Shown here in pieces: positions 9,386 through 20,986 of a DNA stretch of 45,630 nucleotides. Positions within the stretch are counted from its first letter, which is position 1; each line of letters begins with the position of its first letter. This stretch comes from a virus. The stretch is from the IMG/VR virus record IMGVR_UViG_3300034683_000458. One strand, written 5' to 3'. A program made the position numbers and the translations under genes. The notes under the pieces are model-generated. The model saw only the letters and a list, made by a program, of their open reading frames with translations, was not told the DNA's origin and ran no database searches.

Positions 9386-10278
9386 ATGTCATGATACGTA
9401 TAGGGATGGAAGATGACGAGAAAAAGAGGATGATTGACAGCTATGTTGCAGAAAATGACATCAGGAAAGTATTTATATTCTATTATAAGGACTTTCTATT
9501 AGAATACGACAATGCAGACATAGAGGTAGAACATGTCGAATATGCCGACATAATTATGTATAAATTCTTCTACCGTCTGCTTGAAGAGATAGACAACAAT
9601 GTCCTGCTTGTGTTCAACGAATGCATGCGCACGCAGAACAGGAGCGATCTCACATACAACTGCGCTCATCATTACTGTAACCAGACAAAGCATAAGATCG
9701 TTTTCGAATATTTCCCGTTCATCGAAGATAACGCAGATTTCATGATTCTTCTCGATTTCCTCAATAAATATAAGTACAAAGGCAAATCATTCAGGTATGA
9801 GCTGCTTGCAGAAGAAGATATCCTCGCCGTGCCCAAATCTTTCACGATCAGAACTATCGACGTTAGCATCACTCAAAAAGATATTGCGAAATATGAAAAG
9901 CTCAAGGAAGATCTTTTTAACAATCTAGGTGAATCGGATCCAGATATAATTCCGAGAAGGCTGCATGTTTGGGCCGGCAATCTCAAAAAAAGCTGTATTA
10001 AACCTGACTTGCTCTATGTTGCGAGAAACAAGCGGTTCAAGCTGCCTAATGTAGTGACTTATAAAGAAGTAGAAGAAAGAGACTATATTATCATCGACAT
10101 GTCTCACAGAAGAATAGATTTTAATGATTTCCTAAAAAAGACAAAAATGAGAGATATTGTGTTTATTAATACAGGCCTGAAGGTTGACCTGTATTACGTA
10201 AATGATTTAAGGGAGTGGGCGGAAAGGTTAGGTGAGTTCTATGATAAAGCAGGTTTATATCGACAAAAATGTGCTTGA
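9382..10278 (+). CDS. Hypothetical protein with no recognisable domain, AT-rich.
   Basis: 298-aa ORF (alternative ATG at 9391 with RBS AGGGGTGA). It overlaps both flanking PP-loop genes. Confidence 0.6.
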   Translation: MNVMIRIGMEDDEKKRMIDSYVAENDIRKVFIFYYKDFLLEYDNADIEVEHVEYADIIMYKFFYRLLEEIDNNVLLVFNECMRTQNRSDLTYNCAHHYCNQTKHKIVFEYFPFIEDNADFMILLDFLNKYKYKGKSFRYELLAEEDILAVPKSFTIRTIDVSITQKDIAKYEKLKEDLFNNLGESDPDIIPRRLHVWAGNLKKSCIKPDLLYVARNKRFKLPNVVTYKEVEERDYIIIDMSHRRIDFNDFLKKTKMRDIVFINTGLKVDLYYVNDLREWAERLGEFYDKAGLYRQKCA

Positions 10279-11359
10279 GGCTACGAAAGAACGTATAGCG
10301 TTCGTTTTTGACGAATTCGAGAATATCATCGTATCCATCAGCGGAGGCAAGGACAGCACCGTGCTTGCCCATTTGGCCCTCACCGAAGCCCACAGGCGCA
10401 ACAGGCGGATAGGCATCTTTTTCCTGGACGAAGAGGTTGTCTACGAAAGTACCGTGAAACAGGTCGAGTACATCATGAACTTATATCCGGAGAATACCAT
10501 CCCGCTGTGGTTTCAGATTGAATTCAATCTCACCAACGCCAGCAGCCTGACGCAGACACAGCTGATTCCTTGGGAAGCCGGCAAGCATAAGATATGGATG
10601 AGGCCGAAGCAGAAAAACTCGATCCAGCATAAGCCTTGGCCCAAGGAGACCGAGACGGTCCGGGATAAAAACAAAGGTTTCGGATTCTATGATGCCCTTG
10701 AGAATTTTCAGAGATCAAGGCATGATACCGCCTTTTTGATTGGCCTGCGTGCTACAGAAAGCCCCAACCGTTGGCGTGCGGTATCGAAAAATCCGGGTTA
10801 CAAGAACATATACTGGAGCACAAAGCTCAAAAATAATAACTATAACATGTATCCGCTTTATGACTGGAATTTCCATGACATTTGGAAGTACATCTATGAC
10901 AACCAGCTTCGCTATTCGAAGATATATGACTATATGTTCAAGAAAGGAATGGGACTGCAGGAGATACGTGTATCCAGTCTGATCCACGAAAAATCATTCA
11001 AGTCTCTTGTGGAGCTGCCTGAATTTGAGCCTAGGACATATGACAGGCTGCTAAGGAGGGTAAGGGGCATCAGCGTTGGGCATATATACGGGAAGGACAG
11101 CAAGGCATTGCGGGCACGCAAGCTGCCGAAGAACTTTAAGACATGGATCGACTACAGGGATTTCCTGCTTGTGACGTATCCTGATCCAAGCAAGAAATGG
11201 ATATTCGAGAAGCGTTTCAGCAGGCAGCTCAACAATTCCTATGTGGCACGGCAGCAGTGCAGACAGCTGCTGTTGAACGACTACGAGAACAACCTGCCGA
11301 TAGACAATAAGCCAGATCCCAGAGAAGAAAAGATTGAGAAATGGAGGAGATTGTTATGA
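10232..11359 (+). CDS. Second PAPS-reductase-family PP-loop protein, IbrA/DndC-like, with a long C-terminal extension.
   Basis: IIVSISGGKDSTVLAHLAL is a PP-loop motif. At 375 aa it carries an extra C-terminal domain. A ParB-like gene follows, which is the IbrA-IbrB arrangement. Confidence 0.7.
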   Translation: MSSMIKQVYIDKNVLEATKERIAFVFDEFENIIVSISGGKDSTVLAHLALTEAHRRNRRIGIFFLDEEVVYESTVKQVEYIMNLYPENTIPLWFQIEFNLTNASSLTQTQLIPWEAGKHKIWMRPKQKNSIQHKPWPKETETVRDKNKGFGFYDALENFQRSRHDTAFLIGLRATESPNRWRAVSKNPGYKNIYWSTKLKNNNYNMYPLYDWNFHDIWKYIYDNQLRYSKIYDYMFKKGMGLQEIRVSSLIHEKSFKSLVELPEFEPRTYDRLLRRVRGISVGHIYGKDSKALRARKLPKNFKTWIDYRDFLLVTYPDPSKKWIFEKRFSRQLNNSYVARQQCRQLLLNDYENNLPIDNKPDPREEKIEKWRRLL

Positions 11360-16465: not shown

Positions 16466-16502
16466 AAACAAAAAAGGACGGCTTTGGTGTGCCGCCCTTT
16501 TT
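16466..16502 (-). terminator. Bidirectional rho-independent terminator between the tail-fibre module and the lysis cassette.
   Basis: Stem GGACGGC/GCCGCCC with one G-T wobble pair, flanked by A6 and T5 runs. Confidence 0.65.
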
Positions 16503-16517
16503 AAGAAAATATCCTTA

Positions 16518-17198
16518 TTATATTTCAGTATCCCAATCGACAGATTTGATTTGTTCAAGTGCTGCCTCTAGCGATCCTGCTGTTTCAACGGTAATGCCGT
16601 TAAGATAATCATTTAATGTACGCTCACGGGCAAACAGCGACTCAACGAAATTGTGCACAACGAGACTCATTGATAATATCTCTTCAGCTGTTATGTCATC
16701 AAAGCCGTTGATGTACTTCCAATGAATAACGTCTGGCAATTCGGAAGTAAGTTGTTGTATCGCCAGTGGCAAAGATGTTCCCATAACTTTAGCCAATGAA
16801 CTTAACGCTGTGCTCATAATCATTGCTTTGCTTCTGTCATCCGTTGCTACTGTTTTGCCGTTTATCTGGATTCCTGCATTTTCCAATTCGTATCGCTTCG
16901 CTGCAATTTCTGCCCTTTTACTCTTTTTAGCTATATCTAAAATCTCTTCGTCAGCTGCATCGGTAACAACTACACCTTCAACCGCAGAGCTTAAAATTGT
17001 ATACCCAGATTTACCAGACAAACGTATTTCAAGAACCTTTTTTTCTCCTGAAATTCCAGTTAGAACATTGCCGATACCTTCAACGACCTTGTAGCCAGAT
17101 GGAGTCCAAAATATCGTATAATCTGCAGATTCGCTATAAGGCAACTCGATATTACAGGCCTCCATATTATTTTGTGCCGGAAAACTTATTGTTCTCAT
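16518..17198 (-). CDS. Tail-fibre accessory or assembly protein (DUF4376-like C-terminus).
   Basis: RAEIAAKRYELENAGIQINGKTVATDDRSKAMI resembles the DUF4376 motif. RBS AAGGAGG. The start is 1 nt after the RT stop. Confidence 0.5.
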   Translation of the reverse strand: MRTISFPAQNNMEACNIELPYSESADYTIFWTPSGYKVVEGIGNVLTGISGEKKVLEIRLSGKSGYTILSSAVEGVVVTDAADEEILDIAKKSKRAEIAAKRYELENAGIQINGKTVATDDRSKAMIMSTALSSLAKVMGTSLPLAIQQLTSELPDVIHWKYINGFDDITAEEILSMSLVVHNFVESLFARERTLNDYLNGITVETAGSLEAALEQIKSVDWDTEI

Positions 17199-17199
17199 A

Positions 17200-18228
17200 T
17201 CAATTCCTCCTTAAAACAAGATATTTTAAAGCAGAAACAGTACTACAATATCCATTACAGTGTTGCATATAACCTATGAAACTAAATACGCGACTCTTAG
17301 CATACTCAAGGTCAACTTCACCTCTTGCATATCTTCTACTGATGCTTTTAAATCGCTTCTTAGCAGCTTTAACATTCCGTTTGCGTGGTAGTATATGTGT
17401 TTTCCATGTCCTATATCCCGCAAAATCAACACCTTGAGATGCAGGATATATGCGTGTCTTAGGGTTAAGATAAAGCTTCAGCTTTGTTTCAACGAACCAC
17501 TTTATCTCTGCTAGGATGTCTTTTAAATAATGCTTGGTAGGGCCTAAAAGAATCATGTCATCCATATATCTGACGTAGAACTTGACCCTAAGCTTTTCTT
17601 TTACAAAATGATCTGCCTCGGAAAGATAATGATTGGCCAATGTTTGGCTTGTCAGCGCTCCTATTGGTATTCCTCGTCCCGTTACGTTGTTAGTCTCTAT
17701 GATTGTTTTATACAAAGATAGCACTTCCTTTTCGCGAAAGGTGCGTTTTAAGATATCAAGTAATGTTTGGTGATGTATAGATTGAAAGTATTTGGATATA
17801 TCTACTTGTAAAACATATACTCGCCCCCACATGCGCCGTGCTCTGTGTAGAAAATCTTTTGTTCTTAATACACACCTGTGAACTCCTTTCCCGCATCGGC
17901 AAGCATAAGAATCGTAAATCCACTTTTGCTCCATAAATGGCTGAGTTATGCCAATGAGTGCGTGATGCACTACTCTGTCGCAAAATGTTGGTGCCTGAAT
18001 TAACCTTCTTTTAAGCGTATCCACTTTAATAAATTCCCTAAACGGCGATGGCCTCCATCTTCCAGCTATCAGATCCTCTTGTATTTTAAAGATATTCTCT
18101 TCAAGACGATCTGAGAAACGCAGAACCTCAAGCCGATATCGCTTGCCTTTCCTCGCTTCGTTAAATCCTCTCAGAAGATTTTCAAAGGAAATGATCTGTG
18201 GCCATAGATTACTATAACTTTTAGGCAT
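17200..18228 (-). CDS. DGR reverse transcriptase.
   Basis: RLIQAPTFCDRVVHHAL, GIPIGALTSQTLANHYL (the DGR-type IGxLTSQ motif) and the YVRYMDDMILLG catalytic YxDD motif. Confidence 0.9.
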   Translation of the reverse strand: MPKSYSNLWPQIISFENLLRGFNEARKGKRYRLEVLRFSDRLEENIFKIQEDLIAGRWRPSPFREFIKVDTLKRRLIQAPTFCDRVVHHALIGITQPFMEQKWIYDSYACRCGKGVHRCVLRTKDFLHRARRMWGRVYVLQVDISKYFQSIHHQTLLDILKRTFREKEVLSLYKTIIETNNVTGRGIPIGALTSQTLANHYLSEADHFVKEKLRVKFYVRYMDDMILLGPTKHYLKDILAEIKWFVETKLKLYLNPKTRIYPASQGVDFAGYRTWKTHILPRKRNVKAAKKRFKSISRRYARGEVDLEYAKSRVFSFIGYMQHCNGYCSTVSALKYLVLRRN

Positions 18229-18389
18229 GCAACTCCCCCGTTTAAAACCATAAGGCCGCTTTCGAAATATCTACTTGCGGCCCTACTTCTTTTGATATTT
18301 CGCCTTTTTATTGGCGCGGACACCGTTTCCCAAAGGAAAAGGCACTCACGAAATGCCCTTAGGCAATTTCGCCTCTGGCCGCAATTTCC

Positions 18390-18494
18390 CCTTTGCGAGG
18401 CGCCCACCGATATTCGTGTTCGAGTACGAGGAAGGATTGCTCAAACTCAACCTGAACAACCCGCTGTTCGAGCCGTTATTCCAGCTGCCGCCAT
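18390..18494 (-). repeat. DGR template repeat (TR), 105 bp.
   Basis: It aligns without gaps to 18925-19029 and lies between avd and the RT gene. On the coding strand it encodes AAY-rich ...GGSWNNGSNSGLFRLSLSNPSSYSNTNIGGRLAK. Confidence 0.9.
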
Positions 18495-18518
18495 AGAAAC
18501 GATGCCCAAATCTTAAGA

Positions 18519-18905
18519 TTACCGAGAAGCTCTCAAAGCCTTTATTAAACCGCCTACCATCTTGCCTATTTCATTGATTTTCCGTGACCAAACCTCATAT
18601 TTATGAACATTGATATATTTTGACTCGTAACTTTCCGCTACAAGTTCGCGAAGAAGGTCAAGTTCTACATCAATATCCTCAAGTGTAGTTTTCTTGTAAT
18701 ACCTCTTTTTACAGCGACTTATCAAGCGCTGAATATTTCTCGTTGTCATGCGAATATCCTGACAAATTGAGTGTCTTTCTGTGCGAGGAAACTGTAAAAG
18801 CGCAGCGCGTTCATAAGCCGCAAGCTGCCTGAGCTTATCTTGAATGATCATTGGCCCATATTTTGAGCTTGCCTCCGCTATCGCTCCGGCATCAGAATTC
18901 AGCAT
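18519..18905 (-). CDS. avd: DGR accessory variability determinant (Avd, four-helix-bundle family).
   Basis: About 110-128 aa, basic. ...AAYERAALLQFPRTERHSICQDIR...LLRELVAESYESKYI.... Its position between VR and TR is the canonical one. The start is either 18905 or 18851. Confidence 0.75.
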   Translation of the reverse strand: MLNSDAGAIAEASSKYGPMIIQDKLRQLAAYERAALLQFPRTERHSICQDIRMTTRNIQRLISRCKKRYYKKTTLEDIDVELDLLRELVAESYESKYINVHKYEVWSRKINEIGKMVGGLIKALRASR

Positions 18906-18919
18906 ATCAGTACCCCAGC

Positions 18920-20149
18920 TTACACCTTTGCGAGGCGCCCACCGAGATTCGTGTCCCAGTACGAGGAAGGATAGCTCAAACTCAACCTGAACAACCCGCT
19001 GTACGAGCCGTTAAACCAGCTGCCGCCATGATAACAAACTTTTGTCGTACCATCTTTAACAATACTAAAGTAATCACTCCACGATCCTTGCTCCATATAC
19101 GGGATAGTAGTCGACGGGATAAACAGTGCCTTTAAGTCAAATCCGCTTCCTGCCGTATCTGCCATGTCAACTATCCACCCACTGTCTGGCAAGGTAACTC
19201 CCGTATTAACCCATGACTGCGACCCGTTTTTATTCCATATCCAGAGCACACCATTTCTGTTTTCTATGCCCTGCACCATGCACCATACATTACCCCATAA
19301 CTCATGCAGTGCACGCCAGATGGCGTTGGTATATCCGGTGTTCATTGCGGAACCTATGGGGGAGTCAACATTGCCACGTCCGAGAATTGTCTGTGAATCT
19401 GGTGCACCCATCTCAACAAGCGCAAGGTACTGGATTGCAGCTATCTGGTAAATATCTATTAACCTGAATCCAGTTACGCCATCAGTATTTCTTGCGCTGC
19501 ACCTGCTAACCATGGTTGGGAAATCAATTGAAACTAATGGAGGCTTATTATTTTGGCTGCCGGCCTTTGATGTCCCATCTGCAAATGCCTCGTAAGCACC
19601 TACCCAAAAATTATCCATTTCTACCCCTACGTTGTTTAAAAATGCAGGATGCACCTCAGAACCGCTAAATGCAGTTTTATTGATAAACCATGCCTGCTTA
19701 CCGGCATAAGGCCCAGTGGCAAGAGCCATCCTAGCATAATGAAACTTGTCAATGTTGACCATTGATTGTGAATCTATATTTGTAACGTTAAGCTGATATT
19801 CTGGCCTTGAAGAGAAATATCCTACTGGCGTAGATATAGGTTGACCGTTCAAGTCAACTCTGTCCCAGACACCGGCGCCTCCTCCGTTTTCGACTAAAAC
19901 TACACCTATAGGTTCAGTTAAAGTTGGCACTCTTCGGGGACCAGAATATATTAGACTGCCTTCAATATTAACGTCTTTTTCGGTGACAAAAGCCGGGAGA
20001 TCGGTAAAAGACGTTGCGCCGTCTCCGCCTTTATATTTATTGGCCGTCATATCATAACCAAGTTCTCCCTTATCGAGCGGTTGTATCTCTGTGCCCCACT
20101 CGTCGGTTGTTCCCCTTTTGACCGTGATGATCCTTGTTTCATCTGCCAT
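18920..20149 (-). CDS. DGR target: receptor-binding tail-fibre protein with a C-terminal C-type-lectin/FGE-like variable domain.
   Basis: The C-terminus CYHGGSWFNGSYSGLFRLSLSYPSSYWDTNLGGRLAKV* is encoded by the VR. The gene follows the tail-collar fibre gene. Confidence 0.8.
   Translation of the reverse strand: MADETRIITVKRGTTDEWGTEIQPLDKGELGYDMTANKYKGGDGATSFTDLPAFVTEKDVNIEGSLIYSGPRRVPTLTEPIGVVLVENGGGAGVWDRVDLNGQPISTPVGYFSSRPEYQLNVTNIDSQSMVNIDKFHYARMALATGPYAGKQAWFINKTAFSGSEVHPAFLNNVGVEMDNFWVGAYEAFADGTSKAGSQNNKPPLVSIDFPTMVSRCSARNTDGVTGFRLIDIYQIAAIQYLALVEMGAPDSQTILGRGNVDSPIGSAMNTGYTNAIWRALHELWGNVWCMVQGIENRNGVLWIWNKNGSQSWVNTGVTLPDSGWIVDMADTAGSGFDLKALFIPSTTIPYMEQGSWSDYFSIVKDGTTKVCYHGGSWFNGSYSGLFRLSLSYPSSYWDTNLGGRLAKV
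18925..19029 (-). repeat. DGR variable repeat (VR), at the 3' end of the tail-fibre gene.
   Basis: There are 7 differences from the TR over 105 bp. Six fall where the TR coding strand has A. Confidence 0.9.
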
Positions 20150-20167: not shown

Positions 20168-20986
20168 TTATAATGTTTGCGGATCTCCTCCGTACAACCT
20201 GCCATTGTATTGATCGAGCGGTAATAATGGCGTCCCTCCGTACAACCTGCCATTGTATTGATCGAGCGGTAATAATGGCGTCCCTCCGCTGAGTCGTTCG
20301 GCCTTAATCGTTACTCGATGCATCGGCAAAAAACCTATTGTTTTAGATGCAGGATTCCACGTCACAAACATAGGATCCGTTCCTGATGCAGTTCTAAACA
20401 GCGTTTTTAAAGATTCAGCTACAGTAGCTGGCCTGAGTTTCTTTTCTTCTGCCGAAAATGTCCAAAAACCATTTGCCGAAACATAAGGTGCAAAAAGCTT
20501 ATCCAGTTCCTCTGCAAGGCGAGGGAATGTCACAAATCCCAGATTGTCCCCGATAATAGCAGTTACATTCTCCGCCTGATCGACAACTGTAATCAGTGTA
20601 AAGATAATATGGACTGCATGTGGGCCACCCCCAGCAGGGATATAGTCAGGTTCATCACCTGCGTTGCTATAGGCATACAAAACTTCATTCCCTTCAGCAT
20701 CCATGGCAAAAAGCCCTATTTCTCTGAACCAGTACCCAGTCTCCAGATTTTGATTGCTAAGGATGCATTCAATTTCTGCCATGCCATCCCCGGTCACAGT
20801 GTTGCTGTTGATGGGCAAATCTGTGATCCAATTAATTATGTCAGTCATGTCGGCTATCGAAACATCTGGCGGCAGGATCCCGTCGCCAGCTTTGACACGG
20901 GTAAATATTATTGGCGTACCAGTTTGCCCGGCTGCCAACACATTTCTCCCTGCCTTAGTCAATGTCATTGCCTTAAAATTTGCCAC
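20168..20986 (-). CDS. Tail-collar fibre protein (P2 gpH N-terminal-like).
   Basis: MANFKAMTLTKAGRNVLAAGQTGTPIIFTRVKAGDG...REIGLFAMDAEGNEVLYAYSNAGDEPDYIPA. Confidence 0.7.
   Translation of the reverse strand: MANFKAMTLTKAGRNVLAAGQTGTPIIFTRVKAGDGILPPDVSIADMTDIINWITDLPINSNTVTGDGMAEIECILSNQNLETGYWFREIGLFAMDAEGNEVLYAYSNAGDEPDYIPAGGGPHAVHIIFTLITVVDQAENVTAIIGDNLGFVTFPRLAEELDKLFAPYVSANGFWTFSAEEKKLRPATVAESLKTLFRTASGTDPMFVTWNPASKTIGFLPMHRVTIKAERLSGGTPLLPLDQYNGRLYGGTPLLPLDQYNGRLYGGDPQTL
20187..20288. repeat. Perfect 48-bp tandem repeat (about 2.1 copies) in the 3' end of the tail-collar fibre gene.
   Basis: cctccgtacaacctgccattgtattgatcgagcggtaataatggcgtc is repeated at period 48. It encodes GGTPLLPLDQYNGRLY twice. 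Confidence 0.9.

Follow-up and report, generated by a model that had tools for sequence, protein, structure and literature searches.

A BPP-1-like diversity-generating retroelement, very likely complete, at a tail-fibre gene of a temperate contractile-tailed phage or prophage

Identification of the retroelement

The stretch analysed here, IMG/VR virus record IMGVR_UViG_3300034683_000458 (the window), is 45,630 nt long, has a G+C content of 45.8%, and is a temperate contractile-tailed phage or prophage. Very probably it carries a complete diversity-generating retroelement (DGR) similar to that of Bordetella phage BPP-1, with avd, a template repeat (TR), and a reverse transcriptase (RT) gene placed after a target gene on the minus strand. 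The RT, Avd, an adenine-biased pair of TR and variable repeat (VR) at the 3' end of the target gene, and the fold of the target protein are all present and intact, and the DGR proposed in a first-pass annotation of the window is upheld. The order target, avd, TR, RT, also given there, was confirmed from the open reading frames (ORFs). Phage DGRs directed at tail fibres became known in 2002-2004, and catalogues now list thousands. The element is new in sequence and ordinary in kind, a further case of a system already well known. In the scheme of Wu et al., the avd-TR-RT arrangement is Architecture B, subtype B1. Its main features are:

18920-20149, minus strand: target gene, 409 aa, predicted distal tail-fibre or receptor-binding protein (ORF; PHROG tail protein)
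18925-19029, minus strand: VR, the last 35 target codons; mutable span about 18945-19021
18519-18905, minus strand: avd, accessory variability determinant, 128 aa (NF033474 DivGenRetAVD; Pfam bAvd, 1e-22)
18390-18494, minus strand: TR with 24 adenines, 20 of them within the mutable span; the last 19 nt are a GC-rich end resembling IMH* (IMH, initiation of mutagenic homing)
17200-18228, minus strand: DGR RT, 342 aa, intact (RVT_1, 7e-20)

Template and variable repeats

In this region, the repeat finder recognized only one long direct repeat (18385-18494 and 18920-19029; spacing 535 nt), and no other VR-like copy was found anywhere in the window. On the minus strand, TR and VR align over 105 nt without gaps and with seven mismatches. 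Six of these are at adenines of the TR coding strand (plus-strand T at 18480, 18479, 18468, 18438, 18420, and 18411), in exact agreement with the alignment and coordinates reported before. The seventh, included in the earlier count and left undescribed there, is a C in TR and a G in VR (18422 and 18957, respectively), and it changes an S codon to W. Non-adenine changes between TR and VR are a known minority feature of DGRs. The TR adenines, earlier estimated at about 24, number 24, and the chance of at least six of seven mismatches falling on them is P = 5e-4 (hypergeometric). The codon changes at adenine sites, NN to FN, N to Y twice, N to D, and I to L, were reproduced.

The VR codes for the last 35 residues of the target and ends 2 nt short of the stop codon, TAA, as stated by the first-pass annotation. 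Both repeats terminate in GGTGGGCGCCTCGCAAAGG and diverge directly after it, which agrees with the IMH-like common end noted earlier. This shared GC-rich end is 19 nt long and is followed by TGTAAGC... in VR and by GGGAAAT... in TR, as in ends of IMH and IMH* type, which are not identical to each other and start with a GC-rich segment that limits mutagenesis. In the window, TR offers 14 variable codons; no stop codon can arise from any of them, and the number of possible protein variants is about 6e11.

Reverse transcriptase, Avd, and target protein

The RT carries IGALTSQ at residues 189-195 and YMDD at 221-224, the two motifs named in the first-pass annotation, and keeps the catalytic D143. 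The signature of DGR RTs is [I/V/L]GxxxSQ with a catalytic YxDD, in contrast to QGxxxSP (PMC7826257). The most similar PDB entry is 8ub7, with an E value of 9e-47, while group II intron RTs are at 1e-20. The entry 8ub7 is taken here as the Bordetella-phage RT (bRT) since its chain residues 74, 138, 181, 187, 215, and 216 are those named for bRT in the cryo-electron microscopy (cryo-EM) preprint (bioRxiv 10.1101/2023.10.23.563531); the identity is unconfirmed, as the accession is absent from the preprint text. In the alignment with 8ub7, the residues R74, I181, D138, and D215/216 are conserved in the window RT, where R75 and I189 correspond to R74 and I181 of bRT. The latter two were shown experimentally to promote adenine mutagenesis (PMC7826257). 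The intact ORF and the conservation of both catalytic and adenine-mutagenesis residues bear out the earlier remark that no inactivating mutation is visible. A related RT is present in 159 deposited phage records, for example Bacillus phage BalMu-1 and Vibrio phage VP585, and the nearest RT of a deposited phage is 42% identical.

The Avd protein scores above the equivalog cutoff of NCBIfam model NF033474 (91.1 versus 80 bits).

At the N-terminus of the target, a weak Mtd_N-like match of 22.7 bits lies below the cutoff of 26.3, and a search of PDB with the target sequence gave no match. The AlphaFold2 model, built from 50 homologues, is confident, with a predicted local distance difference test (pLDDT) of 86 and a predicted template modelling score (pTM) of 0.84. 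When this model was searched in Foldseek, the variable protein TaqVP (5vf4) was the best match (1.6e-13), followed by five Mtd variants (1yu0-4, about 1e-6), and then by TvpA and formylglycine-generating enzyme (FGE). Because the model is confident and its best matches are DGR variable proteins, the C-type-lectin (CLec)/FGE fold of the C-terminal domain is confirmed at the level of the predicted structure, and the CLec/FGE-like receptor-binding domain named in the first-pass annotation stands. Variable proteins of DGRs display their VR residues on a CLec or an Ig fold.

The target probably represents the distal part of the tail fibre. This assignment is supported by gene neighbourhood, as the gene comes after those for baseplate J, P2 gpI, and a tail-fibre N-terminal protein, and by an Aminobacterium prophage, where a Phage_tail_fib N-terminus and the CLec domain are fused in one protein of 562 aa (P0025). 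Both lines agree with the tail-fibre target claimed before. The nearest target in deposited phages is 30% identical.

Diversification in related elements

Viral contigs were scanned for exact matches to the TR with its adenines wild-carded; none was found, and relatives were therefore collected by protein-guided searches. Altogether, 57 target homologues were found; about 59 related loci (numbered with the prefix L) were fetched, and every TR/VR pair was extracted. A general adenine-biased repeat finder was too strict, as its merged windows took in flanking mismatches and only L046 was reported. The counts comprise 17 distinct TR/VR pairs with 13 distinct TRs; the more distant loci L018-L030 were left out of them, and one false pair (L014) was excluded. 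That pair, L014/L036, has many non-adenine mismatches and was rejected, as its second copy is a VR-like duplicate in a locus with no RT.

In the alignment of target homologues, hypervariable positions recur at fixed places in the last 35 residues, set in the invariant scaffold GGSW..GS..GLF.L.L...S...T.IGGRLAKV. Within the mutable span of the 17 pairs, 206 of 408 adenine sites (50.5%) are changed, compared with 8 of 901 non-adenine sites (0.9%; Fisher P = 6e-112). The mutable adenines are almost solely at codon positions 1 and 2, the placement in DGRs (AAY codons) by which stop codons are avoided, and they are replaced by G, T, and C in 87, 68, and 59 cases, respectively, as counted before the false pair L014 was taken out. 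The rate of 50.5% is close to the 52% of TR adenines misincorporated by bRT-Avd in vitro (PMC7826257), with natural VRs being also filtered by selection.

Loci sharing one TR show the same pattern. L037 and L041 have identical TR and 14 differences in VR, 13 of them at TR adenines, and the 600 nt upstream of VR are 99.2% identical. In L008 and L009, also with one identical TR, 17 of 22 VR differences are at TR adenines. The only VR difference between L001 and L012 is at a TR-adenine site, and their upstream sequence is 100% identical. Comparison of these natural sequences thus shows that, across the element family, change in the VRs is concentrated at TR adenines, with constant TRs and a constant flanking gene. 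Variability confined to TR adenines, which the first-pass annotation proposed to look for in reads, was approximated here with the natural variants of relatives, and it was found at the level of the family.

RNA elements around the template repeat

In the cryo-EM structure of the BPP-1 RT-Avd-RNA complex (bioRxiv 10.1101/2023.10.23.563531), a 'cPRT Stop' strand upstream of TR pairs with the spacer. After TR come a stem-loop that binds Avd and has a tetraloop and flipped-out bases, a spacer strand that is paired with the TR end and serves as primer for cDNA, and the Stop strand, in this order. The 3' part of this RNA has a short stem-loop with adenosines, a single-stranded 'Thumb Ring', and a long RT-binding stem-loop. 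The window holds a candidate for each of these elements, in the same 5'-to-3' order:

18495-18507, minus strand: 5' strand of the 'cPRT Stop' duplex, directly upstream of TR; pairs with 18318-18330 over 13 bp
18349-18371, minus strand: stem-loop of Avd-binding type in the spacer, 9 bp with one bulged base and a UAAG tetraloop
18331-18340, minus strand: candidate primer strand UUUUCCUUUG; pairs with the TR end and the first spacer bases, 18386-18395
18318-18330, minus strand: 3' strand of the 'cPRT Stop' duplex, with covariation
18301-18316, minus strand: short stem-loop, compensatory changes in 3 of 4 pairs
18286-18300, minus strand: A-rich single strand after the short stem-loop, candidate A-minor or 'Thumb Ring' analogue
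18251-18285, minus strand: long stem-loop with a conserved interior loop and covariation, candidate analogue of the RT-binding element

Covariation was tested in an alignment of 14 distinct sequences, with slid partners and shuffles as controls. In total, 93.7% of cells are paired, compared with 45-54% for slid partners, a difference that is inflated by deriving the structure from the window sequence. The compensatory counts are unaffected by this; both sides are changed in 19 pairs, compared with 5-11 in the slid controls. None of the 500 shuffles equalled any observed measure. In the Stop duplex, 12 of 13 pairs form one helix, 96.4% paired, with compensatory changes in 4 of these pairs. Such changes are in 6 of 9 pairs of the Avd-type stem-loop and in 6 of 9 pairs of the long stem-loop, which is 95% paired. 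At the site of the short stem-loop, the relatives have unrelated stem sequences. Four of the five predicted RNA elements (Stop duplex and the Avd-type, short, and long stem-loops) are therefore supported by covariation. Searched at gathering thresholds, Rfam recognized no RNA family in the window.

The homology between TR and VR starts exactly where the Stop duplex ends. At the other end, within the GC-rich segment, none of the three adenines of the terminal CAAAGG is mutated in any pair (51 of 51 cases). This fits a primer duplex that is not copied, and selection on the encoded A-K-V explains it equally well. By analogy with BPP-1, G 18396 would be the first templated base.

Target-site hairpin and proposed mechanism

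A target-site hairpin of DGRs is defined by a GC-rich stem of 7-10 bp and a 4-nt GRNA loop placed 4-34 bp downstream of VR (Guo et al., PMC3240598). One candidate is present in the window:

18872-18891, minus strand: target-site hairpin candidate GCCGGAGC-GATA-GCGGAGGC, 33 nt after VR, inside avd codons 5-11

Its distance and its loop of GRNA type (GATA) fit the definition, but Watson-Crick pairs are possible at only 5 of 8 stem positions.

Cis priming, copying of TR, misincorporation at adenines, and replacement of VR would proceed as in BPP-1, by homology with that phage. Transcription of the avd-TR-spacer region from the minus strand would give an RNA whose spacer folds into the Avd stem-loop, the primer strand, and the Stop duplex with the 13 nt upstream of TR, followed by the short stem-loop with its adenosines and the long RT-binding stem-loop, and on this RNA the RT-Avd ribonucleoprotein would be assembled. 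The strand UUUUCCUUUG would pair with the TR end (CAAAGG and the first four spacer bases, GGAA) and prime cDNA in cis. Synthesis would then start at the G directly preceding CAAAGG and finish at the Stop duplex, where the TR/VR homology begins, with RT misincorporation opposite adenines only. In the replacement of VR by the cDNA, the GC-rich end common to both repeats would serve as a guide and the downstream hairpin as an aid. The resulting variants would be displayed on the ligand-binding face of the C-type-lectin-fold tail-fibre tip, with a switch of host receptor as the likely outcome.

Departures from the canonical form and alternative explanations

Several observations weigh against the reading of the window element as a complete DGR working in the manner of BPP-1. 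Activity is shown by sequence comparison for the family and not for this genome, which is represented by a single sequence. With six, the number of adenine substitutions in the window pair is the lowest in the family, and its VR has one non-adenine change. A search of PDB with the Avd sequence gave no detectable match, and the promoter scan gave results no better than chance, none of them assignable. The primer duplex is invariant across the 14 sequences, so that covariation speaks neither for nor against it, and the putative priming nucleotide would be G, whereas it is A in BPP-1. In the hairpin candidate, purines face purines at the three central positions of the stem (GGA opposite GGA). Finally, TR has G, G, and T at the mutagenesis hot spots 18446, 18440, and 18426, respectively, where all seven close relatives have A.

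Part of these observations could be explained if the cassette were structurally complete but inactive or barely active here, with a frozen VR whose differences are relics of past homing. The hairpin stem with 5 of 8 Watson-Crick pairs, versus 8 of 8 in distant relatives, points in this direction, as do the low number of adenine substitutions with the non-adenine VR change, the three adenines missing from TR, and the fact that relatives have repeatedly lost the cassette, which suggests that selection to keep it is often weak. Disruption of the stem in BPP-1 nearly abolished homing, in a mutant with 7 changed bases (PMC3240598). In distant relatives (L037 and L054-L058 were compared), a GC-rich hairpin with a perfect stem of 8 bp and a GRNA loop lies 33-36 nt downstream of VR. 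In close relatives, the same site has GAA opposite GAA or GAC opposite GGA, and the weakened hairpin is common to the whole close clade. Nevertheless, the same-TR pairs L008/L009, with 17 of 22 differences at TR adenines, and L001/L012 diversified in that clade, and so the weakened hairpin seems compatible with activity. High-confidence inverted repeats of the hairpin type are found in only 34% of curated DGRs, and the window has a full set of intact parts, RT and Avd as well as all RNA elements, with conservation of the residues for catalysis and mutagenesis. The VR carries the new bases of TR at all three lost-adenine positions, which fits homing after the change in TR. A dormant cassette is unlikely, and a complete DGR of BPP-1 type remains the preferred reading. 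The word "canonical", used for it in the first-pass annotation, is slightly generous in view of the hairpin.

It is extremely improbable that the repeats arose by ordinary duplication or recombination of the 3' end of the gene, with coincidental adenine bias and with an RT from a group II intron, a retron, or a defence system. NCBIfam does give matches to group II, Drt, and retron RT models, and the second copy in L014 is indeed VR-like, not a TR, and has mismatches without adenine bias. The NCBIfam matches are sub-threshold, however, with scores far below the cutoffs (128.6 versus 300 bits, and lower), while 8ub7, taken as bRT, leads the PDB matches by 26 orders of magnitude. The RT has IGxxxSQ and not QGxxxSP, an Avd equivalog adjoins it, adenine specificity is replicated in 17 pairs (P = 6e-112), and Rfam finds no intron or retron RNA. 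The tests on RT, Avd, family adenines, and Rfam refute this explanation.

Changes in the template repeat and loss of the cassette

Three of the four TR changes unique to the window are at ancestral adenines (P = 0.05). With VR carrying the same new bases, either TR mutated and then re-templated VR, or information from VR entered TR. It is conceivable, if rather improbable, that TR is not strictly protected from its own system, and that mutagenised cDNA occasionally retrohomes into it or VR-to-TR gene conversion takes place. The identical 19-nt ends of TR and VR and the weakened VR-specific hairpin would make either event easier. If true, erosion of TR would be a natural decay route for DGR templates and might be connected with the recurrent losses of the cassette.

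Among relatives with 61-87% identical targets, avd-TR-RT was lost repeatedly and independently, while the target and the DUF4376 gene that follows the DGR in the window were kept. The remains differ between loci:

L011/L033: deletion scar, only RT residues 321-342 (last 22 codons) left
L005: deletion scar, only Avd residues 1-35 left
L006/L032, L004, L016, L038, and L040: nothing left between target and DUF4376
L014/L036: avd and the VR-like second copy kept, RT gone

The DUF4376 gene is 3' of the target module in every case, with DGR present or absent. Since it is constant in this position, the avd-TR-RT block behaves as a unit of insertion or deletion between two genes of the tail-fibre module.

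The locus L057 (contig JANHAN010047927.1) has the same target-TR-RT-DUF4376 cassette on another backbone, with P22-type portal and SU10-type adaptor. No avd is among its called genes, its DNA being unchecked for an uncalled avd; the near-identical cassette of L058 has a called avd.

Genome setting and host

The window encodes an integrase, large terminase, portal, major head protein, sheath, tape measure, baseplate J, and P2 gpI. The latter is followed by a protein with Phage_tail_fib N-terminal domain, the target, avd, TR, and RT. Downstream of RT are a DUF4376 gene of the tail-fibre module, a GH108 endolysin, and small membrane proteins. The two genes flanking the element are:

20168-20986, minus strand: Phage_tail_fib N-terminal protein, context; presumed proximal partner of the target protein
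16518-17198, minus strand: DUF4376 gene (PHROG 'tail fiber protein'), context and not DGR machinery

A terminator-like site at 16471-16502, after the DUF4376 gene, is the only such site on the minus strand. In megablast against deposited phages, no DNA-level match of the window was found.

The gene for the tail-fibre N-terminal protein contains a perfect 48-nt tandem duplication at 20187-20282, by which GGTPLLPLDQYNGRLY is encoded twice at the C-terminus. All relatives compared have the two-copy 48-nt repeat, with copies matching at only 21-45 of 48 nt, and the perfect copies of the window therefore look recently homogenised. In the early or regulatory arm of the phage, a gene similar to phosphoadenosine-phosphosulfate reductase was identified at 10232-11359 on the plus strand (PHROG 2302, 3e-89).

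Judging from prophage relatives in Aminobacteriaceae, the host is tentatively taken as an anaerobe of Synergistota. The hints on the host conflict (L004 versus L005/L058): Aminobacteriaceae/Aminobacterium assemblies with contigs of 600-800 kb, versus one contig of 1.6 kb binned to a Hydrogenedentota metagenome-assembled genome.

Significance and comparison with known systems

The DGR of the window reveals no new principle. It marks the tail-fibre tip as a hypervariable receptor-binding protein with its about 6e11 possible variants, which bears on prediction of host range. The relatives form a comparative dataset, a family with intact DGRs, pairs with the same TR and different VR, and several independent deletion derivatives. 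Covariation gives independent support for four RNA elements of the BPP-1 cryo-EM structure in a phage lineage far from Bordetella.

Bordetella phage BPP-1 (mtd-avd-TR-brt) has the same gene order, with Avd present. The target is in both a tail-fibre tip protein with CLec-fold C-terminus and VR at the extreme 3' end, its N-terminus in the window being weakly Mtd_N-like, and the window RT keeps the equivalents of R74, I181, D138, and D215/216. Both systems have a GC-rich end on both repeats and share the order of the spacer RNA elements, and the window has a candidate for the GRNA-loop hairpin downstream of VR. Changes affect about 50% of adenine sites (52% for BPP-1 in vitro). The sequences are remote, however; RT matches the BPP-1-type structure at 9e-47, and there is no sequence match between target and Mtd or between Avd and PDB entries. 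The TR has 105 nt in the window and 134 nt in BPP-1. Furthermore, the window has a hairpin stem with mismatches that falls within the coding sequence of avd, its presumed priming nucleotide is G instead of A, and its host is tentatively a Synergistota anaerobe.

TaqVP of Thermus aquaticus (5vf4) has the CLec/FGE fold with C-terminal VR in common with the target (E value 1.6e-13, template modelling score about 0.5), but it is only 17% identical and is a cellular protein, not one of a phage tail fibre. DGRs of deposited phages, such as BalMu-1 and VP585, have a related RT, but with 42% identity for the best RT, 30% for the best target, and no match at the DNA level.

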